A DNA stretch of 64,000 nucleotides from assembly GCA_963798465.1 (NCBI GenBank), contig CAWCTC010000001.1, positions 132,315-196,314 on the forward strand, given 5' to 3'. This document shows, in pieces, positions 6,925 through 58,773 of the stretch. The notes beneath the pieces were generated by a model. The model was not told the DNA's origin. It was given only the letters and a program-made list of their open reading frames with translations, and made no database searches. This DNA is from an uncultured bacterium. GTDB taxonomy: Bacteria; Patescibacteriota; Minisyncoccia; Phycocordibacterales; GWA1-40-21. How positions within the stretch are numbered: position 1 is the first letter of the stretch; the number at the start of each line of letters is the position of its first letter. Position numbers and translations under genes: made by a program.

Positions 6925-8493
6925 TTACTGATTTCTTTTTGGTCTGTATTGAAGCGCTTCGAGAATATGCGATGAGTTTATTGTTTCATTTCCTTCCAAA
7001 TCCGCGATAGTTCTTCCGAGTTTTATTATTCTATGATATGCGCGGGCTGACAAATCTAATTTTTTAGCTGAAGTATTTAAAATTTCCTTTGCGCTATCTT
7101 CCAGTCCGGAGATTTTATTTATGTCTTTCGCTTCCATCTCGCTGTTTGTTTTTATTTTTCTGCCAGCTTCGGCAAATCTTTTTTTCTGAATTTCTCGCGC
7201 AGAGATTACTCGTTTTTTTATTTCAGCGGTTTCTTTTTTGCCGGAATCTTTTTCGGCGAGCTTTTCGTAATTGATTTGTGAAACTTCAACCCACATGTCT
7301 ATTCTGTCGATTATTGGTCCAGAAATTTTTCTCTGATACCTTAGCAAGTCCATCGGCTTGCAGATGCATTCCTTTGTTTTTGAGCCGAAGTTTCCGCAAG
7401 GGCAAGGATTCATTGCTGCAATCAAAATGAAATTTGCCGGGAAAGTTATTGTTCCTTTCGATCTTGAAATAGTTATCTCGCCTTCTTCAAGCGGTTCGCG
7501 TAAAGTTTCAATAACTTTCCTGTCAAATTCTGGAAACTCATCCAAAAATAAAACACCGCGATGTGCGAGAGTTATTTCTCCAGGTTTTGGAGTTGCTCCT
7601 CCGCCGACAATCGAAACATATGAAGCAGTATGATGCGGAGCTCTGACTGGTGATTTTGTAATGATATCTTTTTTCAAAACACCTGCGACGGAATGAATTG
7701 AAGTTATTTCCAGAATTTCGTCAAAAGAAAGTGTTGGCAGAATATGCGCGAAAGCTTTTGCCAGCATTGTTTTTCCGGTTCCTGGAGGTCCGTACATTGC
7801 AATATTGTGTCCGCCTGCAGCTGCGATTTCTAATCCCCTTTTTGCAGTTTCCTGACCTTTTATTTCACTGAAATCAATAAGCATCTCGTCAACTTCCGAG
7901 ATTATTTCTGTCGGAGGCTGTTGTTCCAGTTTTTTTGAAATATTTTCTTCTTTTTGTTTTTCTTTGATTAATTTTTTTGTATTCAAATGTTCGATTATTT
8001 CTTTCAGATTGTTCGCACTGTAAATTTTAATATCGGAAATCAGCGCGGCTTCTTTTGCATTTTCTTTCGGCAGGAAGACTTCGAGGAATCCGCTTGCTTT
8101 GGCCTGCGCGACTATCGGAAGCACGCCGTTTATTCTTCTCAGATTTCCATCAAGCGAAAGCTCACCCAAGAAAAGTATTTTTTCCGCATTAAATTCTATT
8201 TCTTCATTTGCAAGTAGATATGCGAGAGAAATTGCAACATCAAAAATCGGTCCTTCTTTCTTTATGTCCGCGGGAGCAAGCGAGACGACGACTTTTTGAT
8301 TCAAACTTTTTGGAGAAGTGAAACCGGAATTTTTTATTGAAGCTGAAACTCTGTCCCGTGATTCCTCGACTCCCTTGTCCGGCAAACCGACGATAGTGAA
8401 ATTATGCAATCCCTTTGAAAGATCGATTTCAACATCAATTATTTTTGCGCCAAGGCCTATCGTCTGTGCGCTGAAAGTTTTTGCAAAGCTCAT
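6925..8493 (-). CDS. comM: Mg-chelatase-like AAA+ ATPase, YifB/ComM family
   Basis: N-terminal Lon-like domain, Walker A motif GPPGTGKT, C-terminal ChlI-type domain. 522 aa, intact. Confidence 0.9.
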   Translation of the reverse strand: MSFAKTFSAQTIGLGAKIIDVEIDLSKGLHNFTIVGLPDKGVEESRDRVSASIKNSGFTSPKSLNQKVVVSLAPADIKKEGPIFDVAISLAYLLANEEIEFNAEKILFLGELSLDGNLRRINGVLPIVAQAKASGFLEVFLPKENAKEAALISDIKIYSANNLKEIIEHLNTKKLIKEKQKEENISKKLEQQPPTEIISEVDEMLIDFSEIKGQETAKRGLEIAAAGGHNIAMYGPPGTGKTMLAKAFAHILPTLSFDEILEITSIHSVAGVLKKDIITKSPVRAPHHTASYVSIVGGGATPKPGEITLAHRGVLFLDEFPEFDRKVIETLREPLEEGEITISRSKGTITFPANFILIAAMNPCPCGNFGSKTKECICKPMDLLRYQRKISGPIIDRIDMWVEVSQINYEKLAEKDSGKKETAEIKKRVISAREIQKKRFAEAGRKIKTNSEMEAKDINKISGLEDSAKEILNTSAKKLDLSARAYHRIIKLGRTIADLEGNETINSSHILEALQYRPKRNQ

Positions 8494-8658
8494 TTACCCG
8501 AGAAAATTTTTACTAATAAAAAAGTTGTTTTTGGCATATATTTATTCTAAGTTCATTTTAAACCATATCATCATTTTTAGCCAACTTTTTTGCACGGAAT
8601 ATCCTTTTTATTACAAAAAATTATATTCCGTGCATTAGTAAAAACTTTAACGGGTGAA
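8494..8658 (-). promoter_or_regulatory. inverted-repeat leader element, copy 1 (upstream of comM)
   Basis: Read on the minus strand, the 5' arm TTCACCCGTTAAAGTTTTTAC pairs with the 3' arm GTAAAAATTTTCTCGGGTAA. The 3' arm directly abuts the ATG. TGTATAAT -10 box at 8665-8672 (minus). Confidence 0.6.
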
Positions 8659-8693
8659 GAAAACATTATACAGGCAAATTTTAAAAAACAAAA

Positions 8694-9148: not shown

Positions 9149-10240
9149 TTACTGCGTGACGACTCGCGCTTTGCTCACTCTGTTTATGATTTCCTCGAGA
9201 GTGTTGACACTTGTCGTTATGACTATGGTATTCTGATCGATAATTGAGTAGAGAAAAACAATATTTCCCGAAGAATCTTCAACAACTCTGCAATCCTTGT
9301 TATCAATAGTATAGTCTTGAAATTTTATTGCCGTGCTCAATGATGAGCTTGAATACAAAGCTGAATTATCTGGCAATTCGAATAATTCTTTGAAATTCTG
9401 CCAGAGATCTGTTTCCCAGGAAAGCATTCCTGAAAAAGCCGTATCATAATCGCCCACTTTCAATATCAAAAATCTCTGGTTTCCATTGTAATTGTAAAGA
9501 CCGAACATATACGGATCTTTAAGCGTGAGCTCTATCTGCGAAGGCACGTCTGCTCCGATTAATTGCAAAAATTCGCTTGCGGTCACAAGTTTTTCATTTG
9601 TGCTGGTTCCTTCCGTAAGAAAAATATTTTCAAGCTGTCCAAGCTGTGTCGATGATTCATCGACTCTTTCCTGGAGCGTCGTGCTAAGTCTGTTCTGATT
9701 TATCGTATCTAAATTTATTTCTTCTTCCAAATCCGCAGTTATTATCGGTTGGGAAGAAATTGTTTCAACTGGAACTTTTTTCGGGCCGAATTGCATATTG
9801 ATGAGAAGTTGAGGTATGAAAATAGTAAGTGCACCGCCGAAAACTAGGATCAAACTTATGATTATGATTATTTTATTTATTCCTTGTTTTTTTGTTCCTA
9901 CTTCCGTTTTTCTTTCCTGTCCGATCATCTTTTTGTTCTCGGCGAGAGCCATGTTGATGGAAGATATATGACCGGCTTGAATAGTTTCTTCAACATCGCT
10001 TTTATAAGTCCTGATTATCGGCCGAGTTTGTTTTTTTATTTCGGGAGGAGGAATTTCAGACTCGTCTTTGATTTTTATCAACGGTTCGGCTTTTATTTCT
10101 GGCGTCTGTTCAGGAATGATATTGCTGTTTGTTTTTGGTGCTTCACTCGGATTAATATAAGAATCGAGCTGGCTTTCTATAGCCGCTTTTTCTTTCAATT
10201 GGTCGATTATATTCGGTTCTGCTTTTTTTTCTTCGTCCAT
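9149..10240 (-). CDS. hypothetical single-pass membrane protein
   Basis: 363-aa intact ORF with a central TM segment (IIIIISLILVFGGALTIFIPQLLI). No recognisable domain. Confidence 0.55.
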   Translation of the reverse strand: MDEEKKAEPNIIDQLKEKAAIESQLDSYINPSEAPKTNSNIIPEQTPEIKAEPLIKIKDESEIPPPEIKKQTRPIIRTYKSDVEETIQAGHISSINMALAENKKMIGQERKTEVGTKKQGINKIIIIISLILVFGGALTIFIPQLLINMQFGPKKVPVETISSQPIITADLEEEINLDTINQNRLSTTLQERVDESSTQLGQLENIFLTEGTSTNEKLVTASEFLQLIGADVPSQIELTLKDPYMFGLYNYNGNQRFLILKVGDYDTAFSGMLSWETDLWQNFKELFELPDNSALYSSSSLSTAIKFQDYTIDNKDCRVVEDSSGNIVFLYSIIDQNTIVITTSVNTLEEIINRVSKARVVTQ

Positions 10241-10262
10241 AAAATTTTCTTCAGAAAATTAT

Positions 10263-10400
10263 TTACCCGAGAAAATTTTTGCCAAAGAAAATGTTATTGA
10301 TTAAAGTCCAGTAACATTTAAAATTGGTCTTCTTCTCTTAGTAAGATGATATCATAAATATTGATTTTCAATAACATTGGCAAAAACTTTAGCGGGTTAA
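10263..10400 (-). promoter_or_regulatory. inverted-repeat leader element, copy 2 (upstream of the hypothetical membrane protein)
   Basis: Same arms as copy 1 (TTAACCCGCTAAAGTTTTTGCC ... GGCAAAAATTTTCTCGGGTAA). Here an extra 22-nt palindrome separates the 3' arm from the ATG. Confidence 0.55.
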
Positions 10401-40010: not shown

Positions 40011-40580
40011 TTATTTTCCTAAAATTTTCAGTGCCGCCTTTATTCTGTCTCCAGTTTTTGTAATTGTTTTTTCTACATCGCGAAGTGCATCACGTGCATC
40101 TTTCGGATTGTAGCCGAGAGCTTTCAAAGCTTCGATTGCGTCTATTTCATCGCGAAGTGAAATATCATTTTCATCACCTGATATGCCGACCTTATCTTTT
40201 AGCTCGAGCACCATTTTGTCTGCAATCTTTTTTCCAATTCCTGAAACTTTTGTAAGATGGGAAGTGTCGCCGGTTGAAATTGCTCGCTTGAGTGCTGGAA
40301 CAGAACTGATGTTCAAAACATTTACGGCAGTTTTCGGACCGATTCCAGAAATAGAAATTATCATTTCAAAAAATTGCAATTCTTCTTCTGAAAGAAATCC
40401 ATAAAGATCGAGTGCGTCTTCTCTGACGACTAAATGAGTGAACAAGGAAATCTTTTCTCCTTTTTGCGCGACTTCTTTTGTTTCTGCTGTCGTGTAAATT
40501 TTAAAACCGATTCCGCCGACTCCGACAGTTAGAAATTTAACATTTGTGTCCCAAACTATACCTTCTATTTTTGATATCAT
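40011..40580 (-). CDS. ruvA: Holliday junction DNA helicase subunit RuvA
   Basis: MISKIEGIV..., two HhH motifs (ISGIGPKTA and VSGIGKKIA), and C-terminal domain III. Confidence 0.9.
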   Translation of the reverse strand: MISKIEGIVWDTNVKFLTVGVGGIGFKIYTTAETKEVAQKGEKISLFTHLVVREDALDLYGFLSEEELQFFEMIISISGIGPKTAVNVLNISSVPALKRAISTGDTSHLTKVSGIGKKIADKMVLELKDKVGISGDENDISLRDEIDAIEALKALGYNPKDARDALRDVEKTITKTGDRIKAALKILGK

Positions 40581-40719
40581 TTACCCGAGAAAATTTTTGC
40601 TGATGAAAATGTGTTGATGTTACATGAACTGGCAGTTTTGATTAAGATTTATCTTTCAAAAAAGATATCTCTGCCAACTTCTCATTTTCAACACGTCAGC
40701 AAAAACTTTAACGGGTTAA
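40581..40719 (-). promoter_or_regulatory. inverted-repeat leader element, copy 3 (upstream of ruvA)
   Basis: On the minus strand, TTAACCCGTTAAAGTTTTTGCTGA pairs with TCAGCAAAAATTTTCTCGGGTAA, which abuts the ATG. TAGTAT -10-like box at 40722-40727. Confidence 0.6.
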
Positions 40720-40851
40720 TGATACTACGAAAATCAAAAAATAAAAATCAATCGACTGGCATTGATTTCTCATATCAAAAGTGTTAGTGTATAAACCTAT
40801 CAATAAATCGTGTCTCGATTATTATTTGATAAAATAAATTAATTAAAACAA

Positions 40852-41892: not shown

Positions 41893-42354
41893 TTAGAATC
41901 CGAGTTTTTCCATGATTTTTTGTCCGAGCGGTTCGTGCATTTCGACTTCTGGAAGATATTGAAGCAGGAATTCCCTGACATCAAGATGATTGTGTTCTTC
42001 AAGCGGAATGGATATTAAAGGCATCAATGGCTTTTTTGATTTTAATAAAATTTTCTGATTGCTCTTGTCTGAAGCTTCAACCCAGAATGATTCAAGCGAA
42101 GCGAATGGGTACATTTCTTTTCCAGTTTTTATCCCTTTCTGATTGATGCTTATTTCGAATACTTTTGGTGGCGTCAGAGAAATTGAAAGTAGAAGCCCTG
42201 TGGCAATTATTATTAATATTCCGAAAAGCGCGTCGTTCACGATGAAAGAGATTACAACTATGGAAAGAGCGATCAATATGACGGCCCAATACCAATCGGC
42301 AGTTTTTTCTTTTCTTTTATATTCTAGAGCCTTCCAAGAAATTTTATTTTCCAT
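41893..42354 (-). CDS. hypothetical two-TM membrane protein
   Basis: 153 aa with two adjacent TM helices after a short N-terminal region. Confidence 0.5.
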   Translation of the reverse strand: MENKISWKALEYKRKEKTADWYWAVILIALSIVVISFIVNDALFGILIIIATGLLLSISLTPPKVFEISINQKGIKTGKEMYPFASLESFWVEASDKSNQKILLKSKKPLMPLISIPLEEHNHLDVREFLLQYLPEVEMHEPLGQKIMEKLGF

Positions 42355-43966: not shown

Positions 43967-44032
43967 GTCATTCCCGCGCAGGCGGGAATCCAGAATTAGT
44001 TCAACTTAGATTCCCGCCTGCGCGGGAATGAC
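43967..44032. repeat. nested double-hairpin palindromic element
   Basis: GTCATTCCCGCGCAGGCGGGAATC (43967-43990) and its exact reverse complement (44009-44032). Each arm is itself a hairpin (ATTCCCGC/GCGGGAAT). Confidence 0.7.
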
Positions 44033-54712: not shown

Positions 54713-55456
54713 TTATAAATTTCTTTTCCAATTATCTAGAATTATTGCGGTCGCAATCGCTACATTTAAAGATTCTGCTTTTCCAAAAGCTGGGATTGTG
54801 ATTTTTTTTGTAATTAATTTCTCAATTTCTTCACTTACGCCGTTTGATTCATTTCCCATAACGAGAATTCCGCTTGCTGGGAATTTTGTTTCATGAATAT
54901 TTTCACCGTTTAAAAATGCACCGAAAATTGGCAGTTTTGTATATGAGAGAAAATCTTTCAAATCCGTGTAAAACATATTTACTCTAGTGAAAGAGCCTTT
55001 TGTCGCCGTGATAACTTTTGGATTGTAAAAATCTACGGTATTTTTTGAAGCAACAATATTTTTTATTCCATACCAGTCTGCGATGCGAATGATTGTTCCT
55101 AGGTTTCCCGGATCTTTGATTTCATCAAGTGCAATTACAACTTCATCTTTTTTGATTTCAAAATTTTTGTTTTCTTTTTGTTTCACGACAGCAAGTGCCG
55201 CATTATTTGTCGCGAAGGTTCCGACTTTTTCCAAATCAAATTGATTTACAATTTCATATGATTTTGATTTTTCTCTTATTTTTTCTCCATATTTGTCAAA
55301 AAATTCCGTCGTTGTGAGTAAAAGTTCAATTTCAAAATCTGAGTCGAGTAATTCTGAAACGCTTTTTTCTCCTTCGACTAAAAATAGTCCGAGCTCGACT
55401 CTGTTTTTCTTTTCATCCAGCGATTTTATAAGTTTTGCTTGGTTTTTCGTGAACAT
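54713..55456 (-). CDS. TrmH/SpoU family RNA methyltransferase (RlmB-like)
   Basis: N-terminal substrate-binding domain. SPOUT motifs DPGNLGTIIRIADW, MGNESNGV and ESLNVAIATAI. Confidence 0.8.
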   Translation of the reverse strand: MFTKNQAKLIKSLDEKKNRVELGLFLVEGEKSVSELLDSDFEIELLLTTTEFFDKYGEKIREKSKSYEIVNQFDLEKVGTFATNNAALAVVKQKENKNFEIKKDEVVIALDEIKDPGNLGTIIRIADWYGIKNIVASKNTVDFYNPKVITATKGSFTRVNMFYTDLKDFLSYTKLPIFGAFLNGENIHETKFPASGILVMGNESNGVSEEIEKLITKKITIPAFGKAESLNVAIATAIILDNWKRNL

Positions 55457-55593
55457 TTACCCGAGAAAATTTTTGCTGATAAAAATGTGATTGAAGGACT
55501 ATTGAATCACTCATGTGCTAAAGTCTATCTGACTACTAGATTATACAATATTTTTGCATTTTTAATGCGTCAGCAAAAACTTTAGCGGGTGAA
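55457..55593 (-). promoter_or_regulatory. inverted-repeat leader element, copy 4 (upstream of the TrmH-family gene)
   Basis: On the minus strand, TTCACCCGCTAAAGTTTTTGCTGA pairs with TCAGCAAAAATTTTCTCGGGTAA, which abuts the ATG. TGCTAGAAT extended -10 with the hexamer at 55597-55602. Confidence 0.6.
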
Positions 55594-55629
55594 GAGATTC
55601 TAGCATAAATCTGCTATACTTTCCTCAAT

Positions 55630-58702: not shown

Positions 58703-58773
58703 GTATTGTCATTCCCGTGAAAACGGGAATCTAGATTAATTTTGGATCCCCGCATTCGCGAGGATGACAATAC
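58703..58773. repeat. nested double-hairpin palindromic element (diverged second copy)
   Basis: GTCATTCCCGTGAAAACGGGAATC (58708-58731) and GGATCCCCGCATTCGCGAGGATGAC (58744-58768). Each arm folds on itself. Outer arms GTATTGTCAT/ATGACAATAC. Confidence 0.6.

Follow-up and report, generated by a model that had tools for sequence, protein, structure and literature searches.

Correia elements (CREE/NEMIS) of Neisseria are ~100–155 bp long, are bounded by ~26-bp inverted repeats, occur in both orientations with a TA target duplication, have an IHF site and are co-transcribed with the downstream gene; they supply or modify promoters and their hairpin is cleaved by RNase III. To our knowledge Correia elements have no autonomous parent and keep no fixed distance to start codons. 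In the REPIN/RAYT system a GTAG/CGTC tag marks the REPs, most REPINs are located between convergent genes and RAYT is an HUH Y1 transposase. The intervening sequences (IVS) of 23S rRNA are inserted stem-loops that RNase III excises without religation. The Seg genes of T-even phages exemplify free-standing GIY-YIG homing endonuclease genes, which are selfish and found between conserved genes, and Seg-type enzymes have 200 or more amino acids, NUMOD DNA-binding modules and a place in the homing endonuclease (HEase)/UvrC lineage (PMC2988022, PMC1564403). The minimal Slx1-like GIY-YIG proteins (UPF0213/YhbQ; 1zg2, 1ywl) have been described as vertically inherited, stand-alone proteins with no function assigned (PMC1564403). 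Here we analyze 64,000 nucleotides of an uncultured patescibacterium (contig CAWCTC010000001.1, positions 132,315 to 196,314; the window), in which four copies of an inverted-repeat element precede a comM-like gene, a gene for a hypothetical protein, ruvA and a SpoU/TrmH-family methyltransferase gene. Our overall explanation, which we consider probable, is that the four loci are non-autonomous, hairpin-bounded miniatures of ~135–165 nt derived from a selfish GIY-YIG nuclease cassette of ~300 bp; of the identity and origin of the element we are highly confident. The elements are leader-forming relics of a mobile cassette, akin to MITEs (miniature inverted-repeat transposable elements), and not a dedicated regulatory leader.

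In a clade of Paceibacteria, sequence comparison places the cassette and its deletion derivatives in the gap that separates the −10 box from the start codon, at genes that otherwise appear leaderless or near-leaderless. Closest in behavior are the Correia elements and the free-standing GIY-YIG homing endonuclease genes, and the family departs from both in defining features. Compared by description only, it resembles Correia elements in size, inverted-repeat bounds, many copies beside genes and leader position, but it has an unrelated sequence, no TA duplication, strict orientation, abutment to the ATG, a nuclease-encoding parent and a Patescibacteria-specific arm. Like the Seg genes, it comprises a selfish GIY-YIG gene with presence/absence polymorphism, a start codon hidden in a hairpin and neighbors that stay expressed; unlike them, it consists of a bare 89-amino-acid domain of the Slx1/UPF0213 type in a palindromic cassette, and whereas Seg genes have neither terminal inverted repeats nor miniatures, there are here dozens of non-coding copies per genome. 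The 89-amino-acid protein matches UPF0213/YhbQ in domain type and size, yet the nuclease is cargo of a repeat-bounded mobile cassette, unlike UPF0213/YhbQ as described. Palindromic doublets, long hairpins, conserved arms, variable centers, long persistence and a nuclease thought to maintain the family are shared with REPINs; the arms, however, begin TTMACCCG and lack a GTAG tag, the open reading frame (ORF) encodes a GIY-YIG and not an HUH enzyme, and the ATG is abutted. The 23S rRNA IVS offers a parallel for the proposed rescue of the host mRNA, in which a nuclease specific for double-stranded RNA would cut the insert out, although the IVS lies in rRNA and the insert here in mRNA leaders, where cleavage is only proposed.

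The link to a nuclease rests on five 297-nt copies, in five genomes and at five different loci, that enclose between the same arms an intact 89-codon ORF with the product MQYVYVLQSKK..YTGCTKDL..RL.LHNAKK...LIYYEAY...REKYMKT.YGRN.IKKVLSNFFISKNFLG. Its stop codon is the TAA of the GGGTAA in the 3′ arm, and the 3′ arm encodes ..FISKNFLG and stop; the 3′ arm of the ruvA copy in the window is homologous to this C-terminal coding end. The ORF matches the Pfam GIY-YIG family (PF01541) with E = 5e-14 and 1.5e-15, the domain spanning residues 2–73, and the nearest solved relative is UPF0213 protein BH0048 (1zg2; phmmer E = 2.4e-4, residues 2–66). By its sequence, then, the protein belongs among the minimal prokaryotic Slx1-like GIY-YIG domains (PMC1564403). 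No C-terminal DNA-binding module (NUMOD or helix-turn-helix, HTH) was found in the 84–89-amino-acid protein, PHROGs and PADLOC gave no match to the nuclease, and a database search returned 236 clusters of 84–89-amino-acid homologs. Pairwise dN/dS of the ORF is 0.06–0.27, which places the nuclease under purifying selection, and one genome (JAPLZG01) holds two cassette copies on different contigs with a dS of 0.11. The AUG of the nuclease is itself sequestered in a helix of 13–14 bp, a trait by which other selfish endonuclease genes also restrain themselves, and folds were far more stable than those of shuffled sequences, with z = −4.8 in addition to the z = −7.0 of the ruvA copy.

Between cassette and miniature lies a graded series. 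Intermediate forms of 233, 226, 212 (~210) and 160–181 nt keep the hairpin at the ORF start (GCATTATGCAAT...ATTGCATAATGC) together with the 3′ end, the series runs down to 135 nt, and remnants of the nuclease pseudogene are visible in two of the stretches recovered from other genomes (L027 and L051). In an alignment of intact cassettes with the window copies, ~29 nt are common at the 5′ end and ~45 nt at the 3′ end. Copy 1 retains the decayed nuclease frame ..NNFFISKNFLG and stop plus a 12-bp central hairpin, and copy 4 retains CGCATTA...AATGC, the collapsed ORF-start hairpin; the 149-nt ortholog of copy 4 in L051 still shows LLHNAKK remnants. The shared ends, intermediates and remnants together indicate that evolution ran from cassette to miniature. 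The murG slot holds an intact cassette in L102 and a 139-nt miniature in L033, L072 and L002. Among at least 108 loci the 89-amino-acid GIY-YIG ORF is the only one found between identical arms, and no transposase gene is present; a search for long elements (400–4000 nt) with the same arms around other genes found none except a rearranged comM region in L021. In that region (L021:6141–7034) the 3′ arm and the first ~25 nt of comM are duplicated around a segment of ~890 bp, which carries a gene for a 196-amino-acid membrane or secreted protein and an internal comM fragment (..IDTLREPL); the duplication is either a rearrangement or an assembly chimera.

It was a leader-peptide test of the conserved TAA that revealed the 89-codon ORF. 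For the miniatures themselves a leader peptide ending at this TAA was rejected, since 57 of the 93 copies among the matches listed have no in-frame ATG, and in the TGAY type it was rejected on account of an in-frame stop 12 codons upstream. The same genomes contain additional small GIY-YIG paralogs, 41–50% identical (L015:1004–1243, L015:2754–3005, L057:315–557 on the minus strand and L020:2068–2262), and at least two of them have matching inverted-repeat ends of their own, ..GGGTAAAC ATG or CCCG...CGGG. In the paralogous family of L015 the arm ACCCTGTTAAAT pairs with ATTTAACAGGGTAAAC, which is followed by the ATG, and in L057 CCCGTACGAAATA pairs with TATTTCGTACGGG.

Mobility is evident from presence and absence of the element at the same sites in related genomes. 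The ruvA site of the window reads gattttcgTAGTATcatta[ACCCG...CGGGTAA]ATGATATCA. Syntenic ruvA alleles without the element were found in L115, L118, L120 and L121, and the allele of L115, from a metagenome and 93% identical at the amino acid level, reads tcatttcgTAGTATcatttaagcATGATAGCA (in short form TAGTATcatttaagcATG). At comM, empty sites occur in L049 and L064; L049 reads tgtataat, 9 nt and ATG, and the window reads tgtataat, 9 nt, the element and ATG. A dksA-like gene has an empty form tgctacaatttacacatATG and a filled form tgttacaatta[element]acatATG, a gene of L013 has empty orthologs in L025 and L073, and the element is likewise absent upstream of orthologous trmD and other genes in close relatives. 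Absence upstream of orthologs was the very outcome that the sequence-only reading had named as speaking against its proposal of a closed leader. The differences between relatives indicate that the element is, or recently was, mobile. No target-site duplication was seen in the filled/empty comparisons at ruvA, comM, the dksA-like gene and the MENKISW gene; instead, ~4–5 nt of spacer next to the ATG are replaced. A TAA/TNA target duplication was rejected as a candidate: the right side is always TAA, which is the ORF stop, the left side has A, C or T, and the empty sites lack a duplicated triplet. The −10 box was likewise rejected as a part of the element at ruvA and the dksA-like gene, as the same −10 and upstream sequence stand at the empty sites; the TAGTAT hexamer of ruvA and the sequence upstream of it recur in the empty alleles L115, L118 and L120. 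Orthologous slots of ddl, trmD and pilC hold different subfamilies across species. As judged from these alleles, the element inserts in one orientation with its right end fixed to the start codon. A second, unrelated type of leader was seen in the same −10-to-ATG slot, made of tandem ATTCGTAA-like repeats (e.g. gtataat..attcgtaaacattcgtaaaattcgcataacattcgtatcttATG), upstream of comM in L064, of trmD in L062 and of pilC in L101 and L099.

The extent of the family was gauged by scanning species-representative genomes with the 18-nt 3′ arm, and the family counts rest on the at least 108 matching stretches so obtained. About 85 of these lie in metagenome-assembled genomes (MAGs) of Patescibacteria (labeled Paceibacterota, Taylorbacteria, Minisyncoccia and others), the remainder being single chance occurrences in unrelated taxa. 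At least 93 unique full copies were recovered from at least 14 related Patescibacteria MAGs (88 after dropping three to five re-detections on the reverse strand). Among the matches listed, single genomes hold up to 20 or more matching stretches, most elements measure 130–139 nt and others 160 to 297 nt, every forward copy has the orientation of the gene that follows it, the ATG stands exactly at +0 after GGGTAA in 49 of 93 copies, and 75 of 93 have the start of an ORF of 50 or more codons within 13 nt. Most of the remaining copies precede small ORFs or run off contig ends, and a few are followed by a terminator (L001, L086) or stand in tandem (L011, L092, L095, L104). These distances answer the arm-consensus search of relatives that had been suggested with the first description, and the start-codon abutment seen in the window recurs elsewhere in the family. 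The consensus reads TTM-ACCCG-YT-AAAG-TTTTT-RYYRA...TYRRY-AAAAA-TTTT-CT-CGGG-TAAA, with the final A usually the A of the ATG. The interiors, first described as unrelated, in fact group into subfamilies whose centers are 72–87% alike within and between genomes, and copies 3 and 4 of the window have ~30–45 nt in common at each end. Copy 3 has an identical copy in L024 (PLOL01), copy 1 has orthologous copies in L021, L030, L044 and L106, and copy 2 has an orthologous copy in L030 and a related one in L021.

Several copies are irregular. The 3′ arm is duplicated in L011:1033–1207, a 40-nt mini-hairpin consisting of arms only is nested in the 3′ end of another element in L103:6460–6632, and in L104:3230–4430 (minus strand) three or four elements are clustered, an intact nuclease gene among them. 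At L098:2337–3169 the RNase III gene itself lies behind a miniature element. The element and bacterial genes of the candidate phyla radiation (CPR) were both seen in JAGVNG01 (L019, L044, L076), a MAG labeled Nanoarchaeota archaeon DeMMO3_40 with comM and trmD orthologs 82–93% identical to those of Paceibacteria; the archaeal label looks wrong.

In the window, the four minus-strand copies stand where the sequence-only reading had placed them, as extraction of the sequence and counts of the arm patterns confirmed (Table 1). They have common, mutually pairing arms, 5′ TTMACCCGYTAAAGTTTTTRY and 3′ RYAAAAATTTTCTCGGGTAAA, and share one orientation. When up to three mismatches are allowed, the pattern of the 5′ arm has eight matches against 0.4 expected, namely the four true arms and four imperfect reverse arms, and the 3′ arm pattern has four against 0.01 expected; a structural scan of the whole window found no fifth copy. 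The stem begins with 5 bp (ACCCG/CGGGU), continues through a 2×2 internal loop and ends with at least 14 bp including a conserved G·U, so that the paired arms with a 2-nt internal mismatch of the first description stand, except that the inverted repeat extends 3 nt further at each end (TTM...AAA, the final A 100% conserved). Each copy is predicted to fold as a rod. In the ruvA copy (40578–40722, minus strand) the host CAUU 5′ of the 5′ arm can also pair with AAUG, and this pairing pulls the start codon into the stem in the minimum free energy (MFE) fold. Three copies abut the ATG directly after GGGTAA and lack a Shine-Dalgarno (SD) sequence, as first noted; in copy 2 the ATG follows 22 nt downstream, and a small additional hairpin, AATTTTCTGAAGAAAATT, was seen at 10243–10260 (minus strand).

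Table 1. Coordinates of the elements, their arms, and the associated genes and −10 boxes (window positions unless a stretch is named)
Feature	Position	Strand	Description
Copy 1	8494..8658	−	165 nt, ACTAAT subfamily, before comM-like gene
Copy 2	10263..10400	−	138 nt, GCCAAT stem, before hypothetical protein gene
Copy 3	40581..40719	−	139-nt miniature, GCTGAC subfamily, between −10 box and ruvA ATG
Copy 4	55457..55593	−	137 nt, GCTGAC subfamily, before SpoU/TrmH gene
Copy 3, 5′ arm	40694..40719	−	TTAACCCGTTAAAGTTTTTGCTGACG; based on position-specific conservation over 92 copies and the pairing table
Copy 3, 3′ arm	40580..40605	−	CATCAGCAAAAATTTTCTCGGGTAAA; its final A doubles as first base of the ruvA ATG
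comM-like AAA+ ATPase gene behind copy 1	6925..8493	−	Pfam Mg_chelatase, ChlI, Mg_chelatase_C
Hypothetical protein gene behind copy 2	9149..10240	−	from ORF list; ATG at 10240; no Pfam family
ruvA behind copy 3	40011..40580	−	Pfam RuvA_N, HHH_5, RuvA_C
SpoU/TrmH-family methyltransferase gene behind copy 4	54713..55456	−	Pfam SpoU_methylase
Extended −10 of copy 1	8665..8672	−	TGTATAAT; hexamer TATAAT (8670–8665) ends 9 nt before ACCCG
−10-like TAGTAT of copy 3	40722..40727	−	ends 5 nt before ACCCG; part of host site, not of element
Extended −10 of copy 4	55597..55604	−	TGCTAGAAT; TAGAAT (55602–55597) ends 6 nt before ACCCG
18-bp-palindrome element	L021:5982-6141		
18-bp-palindrome element	L045:4011-4171		
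18-bp-palindrome element	L007:2419-2599	−	
18-bp-palindrome element	L106:1623-1784	−	

Pfam matches support the gene identities first proposed for three of the four downstream genes (ComM-like, RuvA and SpoU/TrmH), the fourth having no Pfam family, and an exact look-up of the window RuvA protein returned no record. The three −10-like hexamers reported for copies 1, 3 and 4 are likewise present at the distances given in Table 1. Allowing ~7 nt after the −10, the predicted start sites of these copies fall within −2 to +1 of ACCCG, and for copy 4 the spacing rule drawn from the leaderless genes of the window places the start on the A of ACCCG. With predicted starts at the 5′ arm, the full stem could form in these window copies. 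Copy 2 has no −10 box upstream and directly adjoins the terminator hairpin of the upstream KH/S1 gene. As for the other genes, 10 of the 42 long ORFs of the window that start with ATG have a strong −10 ending 6–9 nt before it (e.g. tgatataatttccacATG), and an SD-like motif precedes only 4 of the 42 (e.g. 34370, 35190, 60227); starts of the leaderless type (TGnTAnAAT, 6–9 nt, ATG) were seen, for example, at 42354, 44057, 46162 and 18448. The window genes thus appear to be mostly of the leaderless type. GC-rich hairpin repeats of another kind were also observed: ATTCCCGCGCAGGCGGGAAT forms an inverted doublet between divergent genes (43970–44029), a single copy, ATTCCCGTGAAAACGGGAAT, lies at 58711–58730 before an ORF at 58742, and the pattern has three exact matches in the window against 0.16 expected.

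How a gene would tolerate such an insert can be proposed as follows. The insert would be transcribed as the leader of the gene, from the −10 of the host or, in one subfamily, from an internal −10. The terminal inverted repeat would then fold into a stem of at least 20 bp that loops the insert out and leaves the AUG at the foot of the stem, and this loop-out would limit the harm to the host gene, which lacks a Shine-Dalgarno sequence and would normally use a 5′-terminal AUG. The likeliest route from there may be endonucleolytic trimming of the stem, of the RNase III type, to leave a short leader or none; alternatively, the ribosome might initiate directly beside the stem, and in intact cassettes ribosomes that terminate at the UAA may re-initiate at the AUG that adjoins it (UAAAUG). 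Pfam identifies an RNase III gene in the clade, and this, together with other genes of the leaderless type, makes an RNase III-to-leaderless route more plausible, although we regard the specific RNA-processing step as tentative. That the arms are so extremely conserved is probably due to their use as a substrate of the nuclease or as a recombination site; repeated conversion between copies would homogenize them, and dependence of the host gene would add constraint. Arms that served as the DNA substrate of the nuclease would explain conservation where they are untranscribed, the homogeneity of the arms and the palindromic footprints described below.

The pairing of the arms is well supported by comparison. 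The arms of ~21 nt pair with two to three conserved mismatches, stem positions 16–19 covary (GC/AU, CG/UA and so on), and 341 of 368 cells are Watson-Crick. In the TGAY subfamily covariation extends to an inner helix, TGAAAATG:CATTTTCA, and G·U there outnumbers A·C by 9:0, a count in which the orthologs are not independent. An H-type pseudoknot of the two inner helices was considered and set aside as sterically implausible, the connecting loops having zero length, and the helices were treated as alternatives. Distant homologs have altered arms that are still complementary, ACCCTCTAAACTTTTTACCTA with TAGGTAAAAAGTTTTTAGGGTAA in L109 and ATCCGCCAAAATTTTTGCCAA with TTGGCAAAAATTTAGGAGGATAA in L113, where the 3′ arm contains the SD sequence of yebC. 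The L113 cassette (1460–1775) sits between ruvB and yebC-ruvC, and the SD sequence in its 3′ arm is GGAGG; its 5′ arm (ATCCGCC), changed so as to remain complementary, would mask the yebC SD sequence.

Several observations weigh against this account of mobile miniatures that are accommodated at the RNA level. In the main stem G·U and A·C stand at 15:14, no excess of G·U. Perfect 18-bp palindromes with loops of 0–2 nt, unrelated to one another, occupy one and the same internal position in four elements of 160–181 nt (Table 1), and comM orthologs whose proteins are 86–89% identical are preceded by wholly different perfect central hairpins; such turnover looks, from the aligned sequences, too rapid and too exact to have arisen by compensatory changes one step at a time and suggests a hairpin process at the DNA level, for example deletion between inverted repeats or snap-back repair. 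In the commonest arrangement outside the window the invariant ACCC lies outside the predicted RNA, and in the GCCAAY subfamily the 5′ arm lies upstream of the element's own promoter; an ACCC that is conserved yet untranscribed means that RNA pairing alone cannot explain the conservation of the arms. An intact nuclease gene is absent from the 64-kb window, and miniatures within one genome reach at most 87% identity in their interiors, so that, as far as these sequences tell, recent movement of miniatures lacks support from within-genome pairs. We know of no bare GIY-YIG protein of 89 amino acids, without a DNA-binding domain, that mobilizes DNA alone. In principle a passenger role of the nuclease ORF is conceivable, although the series of decayed forms and a 3′ arm that is coding speak against it. 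Finally, every RNA-level step proposed above is read from sequence.

The best-surviving alternative, which we nonetheless consider unlikely, is a dedicated cis-regulatory leader of the host, in which the 5′ end of the transcript pairs just before the AUG, gates translation or binds a global factor and so defines a regulon. It would account for arms that are more conserved than the adjoining coding sequence at orthologous loci (comM in five species, trmD and murG), for the strict orientation and position relative to the ATG, for two alternative inner helices that both covary in a switch-like manner and for the predicted starts at the 5′ arm in the window. The empty sites in close relatives speak against it, as do a slot shared by different subfamilies and the intact nuclease cassette, the homology of the family to a decaying ORF and the genes served, which are unrelated housekeeping genes. 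Moreover, many copies cannot close the leader. Of 38 copies in the TGAY subfamily, which includes copies 3 and 4, 22 have an extended −10 (TGnTAnnnT) at −11 whose hexamer ends 2 nt before ACCCG, and with a spacing of 6–7 nt transcription would start at about C3/G4, inside the 5′ arm. In the GCCAAY subfamily about half of the copies have an extended −10 inside the element, at +68 to +76 and always facing the gene, and a terminator often lies ahead of the 5′ arm. A −10 so close to the arm, or inside the element, makes the full closed leader impossible in those copies. No Rfam 15 family covers the element: only tRNAs pass the gathering score in the window, and at E ≤ 1 the element has only sub-threshold matches to generic hairpins (miRNA precursors). 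The idea that the 5′ end of the transcript pairs before the start codon therefore fits the window copies, with predicted starts at ACCCG, and not many others. Likewise, what survives of the closed leader first proposed is its co-oriented place directly upstream of the gene and downstream of a −10; dedicated regulation gives way to a mobile element in view of the empty orthologous sites.

Less probable again is a domesticated module that acts at the DNA level, its arms being paired protein-binding sites or a cruciform that tunes the promoter through supercoiling or looping, with the RNA structure incidental. Such a module would suit a primary sequence that is invariant over ~20 nt in both arms, mismatched positions included, as well as the 5′-arm ACCC that is conserved even where presumably untranscribed, the stem without bias of G·U over A·C and the perfect zero-loop palindromes of some copies. 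Binding sites, however, do not explain the covarying stem positions 16–22 or the different but complementary arms of the distant homologs, a 3′ end that so strictly adjoins the ATG suggests that transcript or translation is involved, and presence/absence polymorphism speaks against a required module.

A classical MITE with terminal inverted repeats (TIRs), moved in trans by a DDE transposase of the IS630 or IS5 family and carrying the GIY-YIG ORF as an unrelated passenger, is very unlikely. Repeats of ~21 bp at the ends, small size, many copies and subfamilies are what such an element would have; but no filled/empty comparison shows a target-site duplication, and ~5 nt of spacer are replaced instead, no transposase gene lies between the same arms at any of the at least 108 loci, where only GIY-YIG is enclosed, the orientation is not random (75 of the 93 copies listed lying within 13 nt of an ORF start), and each paralogous GIY-YIG family has matching arms of its own. 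Of the MITE alternative first raised, mobility and MITE-like miniatures were thus upheld and the classical form was not. An invertible promoter switch (inverton), with the arms as recombination sites around a flipping promoter, would fit inverted repeats that flank ~100 bp upstream of genes and the internal −10 of one subfamily, but is extremely improbable, since the arms are distinguishable and keep the same order in 88 of 88 forward copies among the matches listed, cross-species orthologs included, the internal −10 is directed toward the gene in every case, the interior is a palindrome in its own right and no recombinase is associated.

We found no description of such an element in the literature searched, where queries on the arm sequences, on leaderless translation in Patescibacteria/Parcubacteria and on GIY-YIG with MITEs, inverted repeats or the CPR returned nothing; coverage was incomplete and leaves room for a prior description elsewhere. 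The arm sequence had no match in viral contigs. The kinds of element involved, a selfish nuclease gene and MITE-like derivatives, are known; unusual are the bare Slx1-like nuclease, the palindromic bounds and the precise occupation of the −10-to-ATG gap of leaderless genes. Going beyond the explanation of the four loci as cassette-derived miniatures, we raise as a speculative possibility that the family is a new class of mobile element, in which a bare nuclease of the Slx1/UPF0213 type acts on the hairpin or cruciform of its own arms, or on the melted DNA of an open promoter, and copies cassette and miniatures into the −10-to-ATG gap of leaderless genes, the arms making the insert removable from the mRNA. 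If this were true, the large UPF0213 family would gain a role, and the hypervariable palindromes would be footprints of hairpin processing.

The finding of a protein of the widespread UPF0213 family at the core of a repeat-bounded cassette leads to the hypothesis that these proteins include a structure-specific nuclease that maintains or moves hairpin elements. Tiny, streamlined genomes of this kind are assumed to carry little selfish DNA; in the window the element precedes about 4 of ~58 long ORFs, a large share of the promoters. Leaderless, SD-poor translation that faces a structured leader of 135 nt is a natural experiment, in which filled and empty alleles can be compared, and recognition of the element would help the annotation of start codons and promoters in Patescibacteria MAGs.

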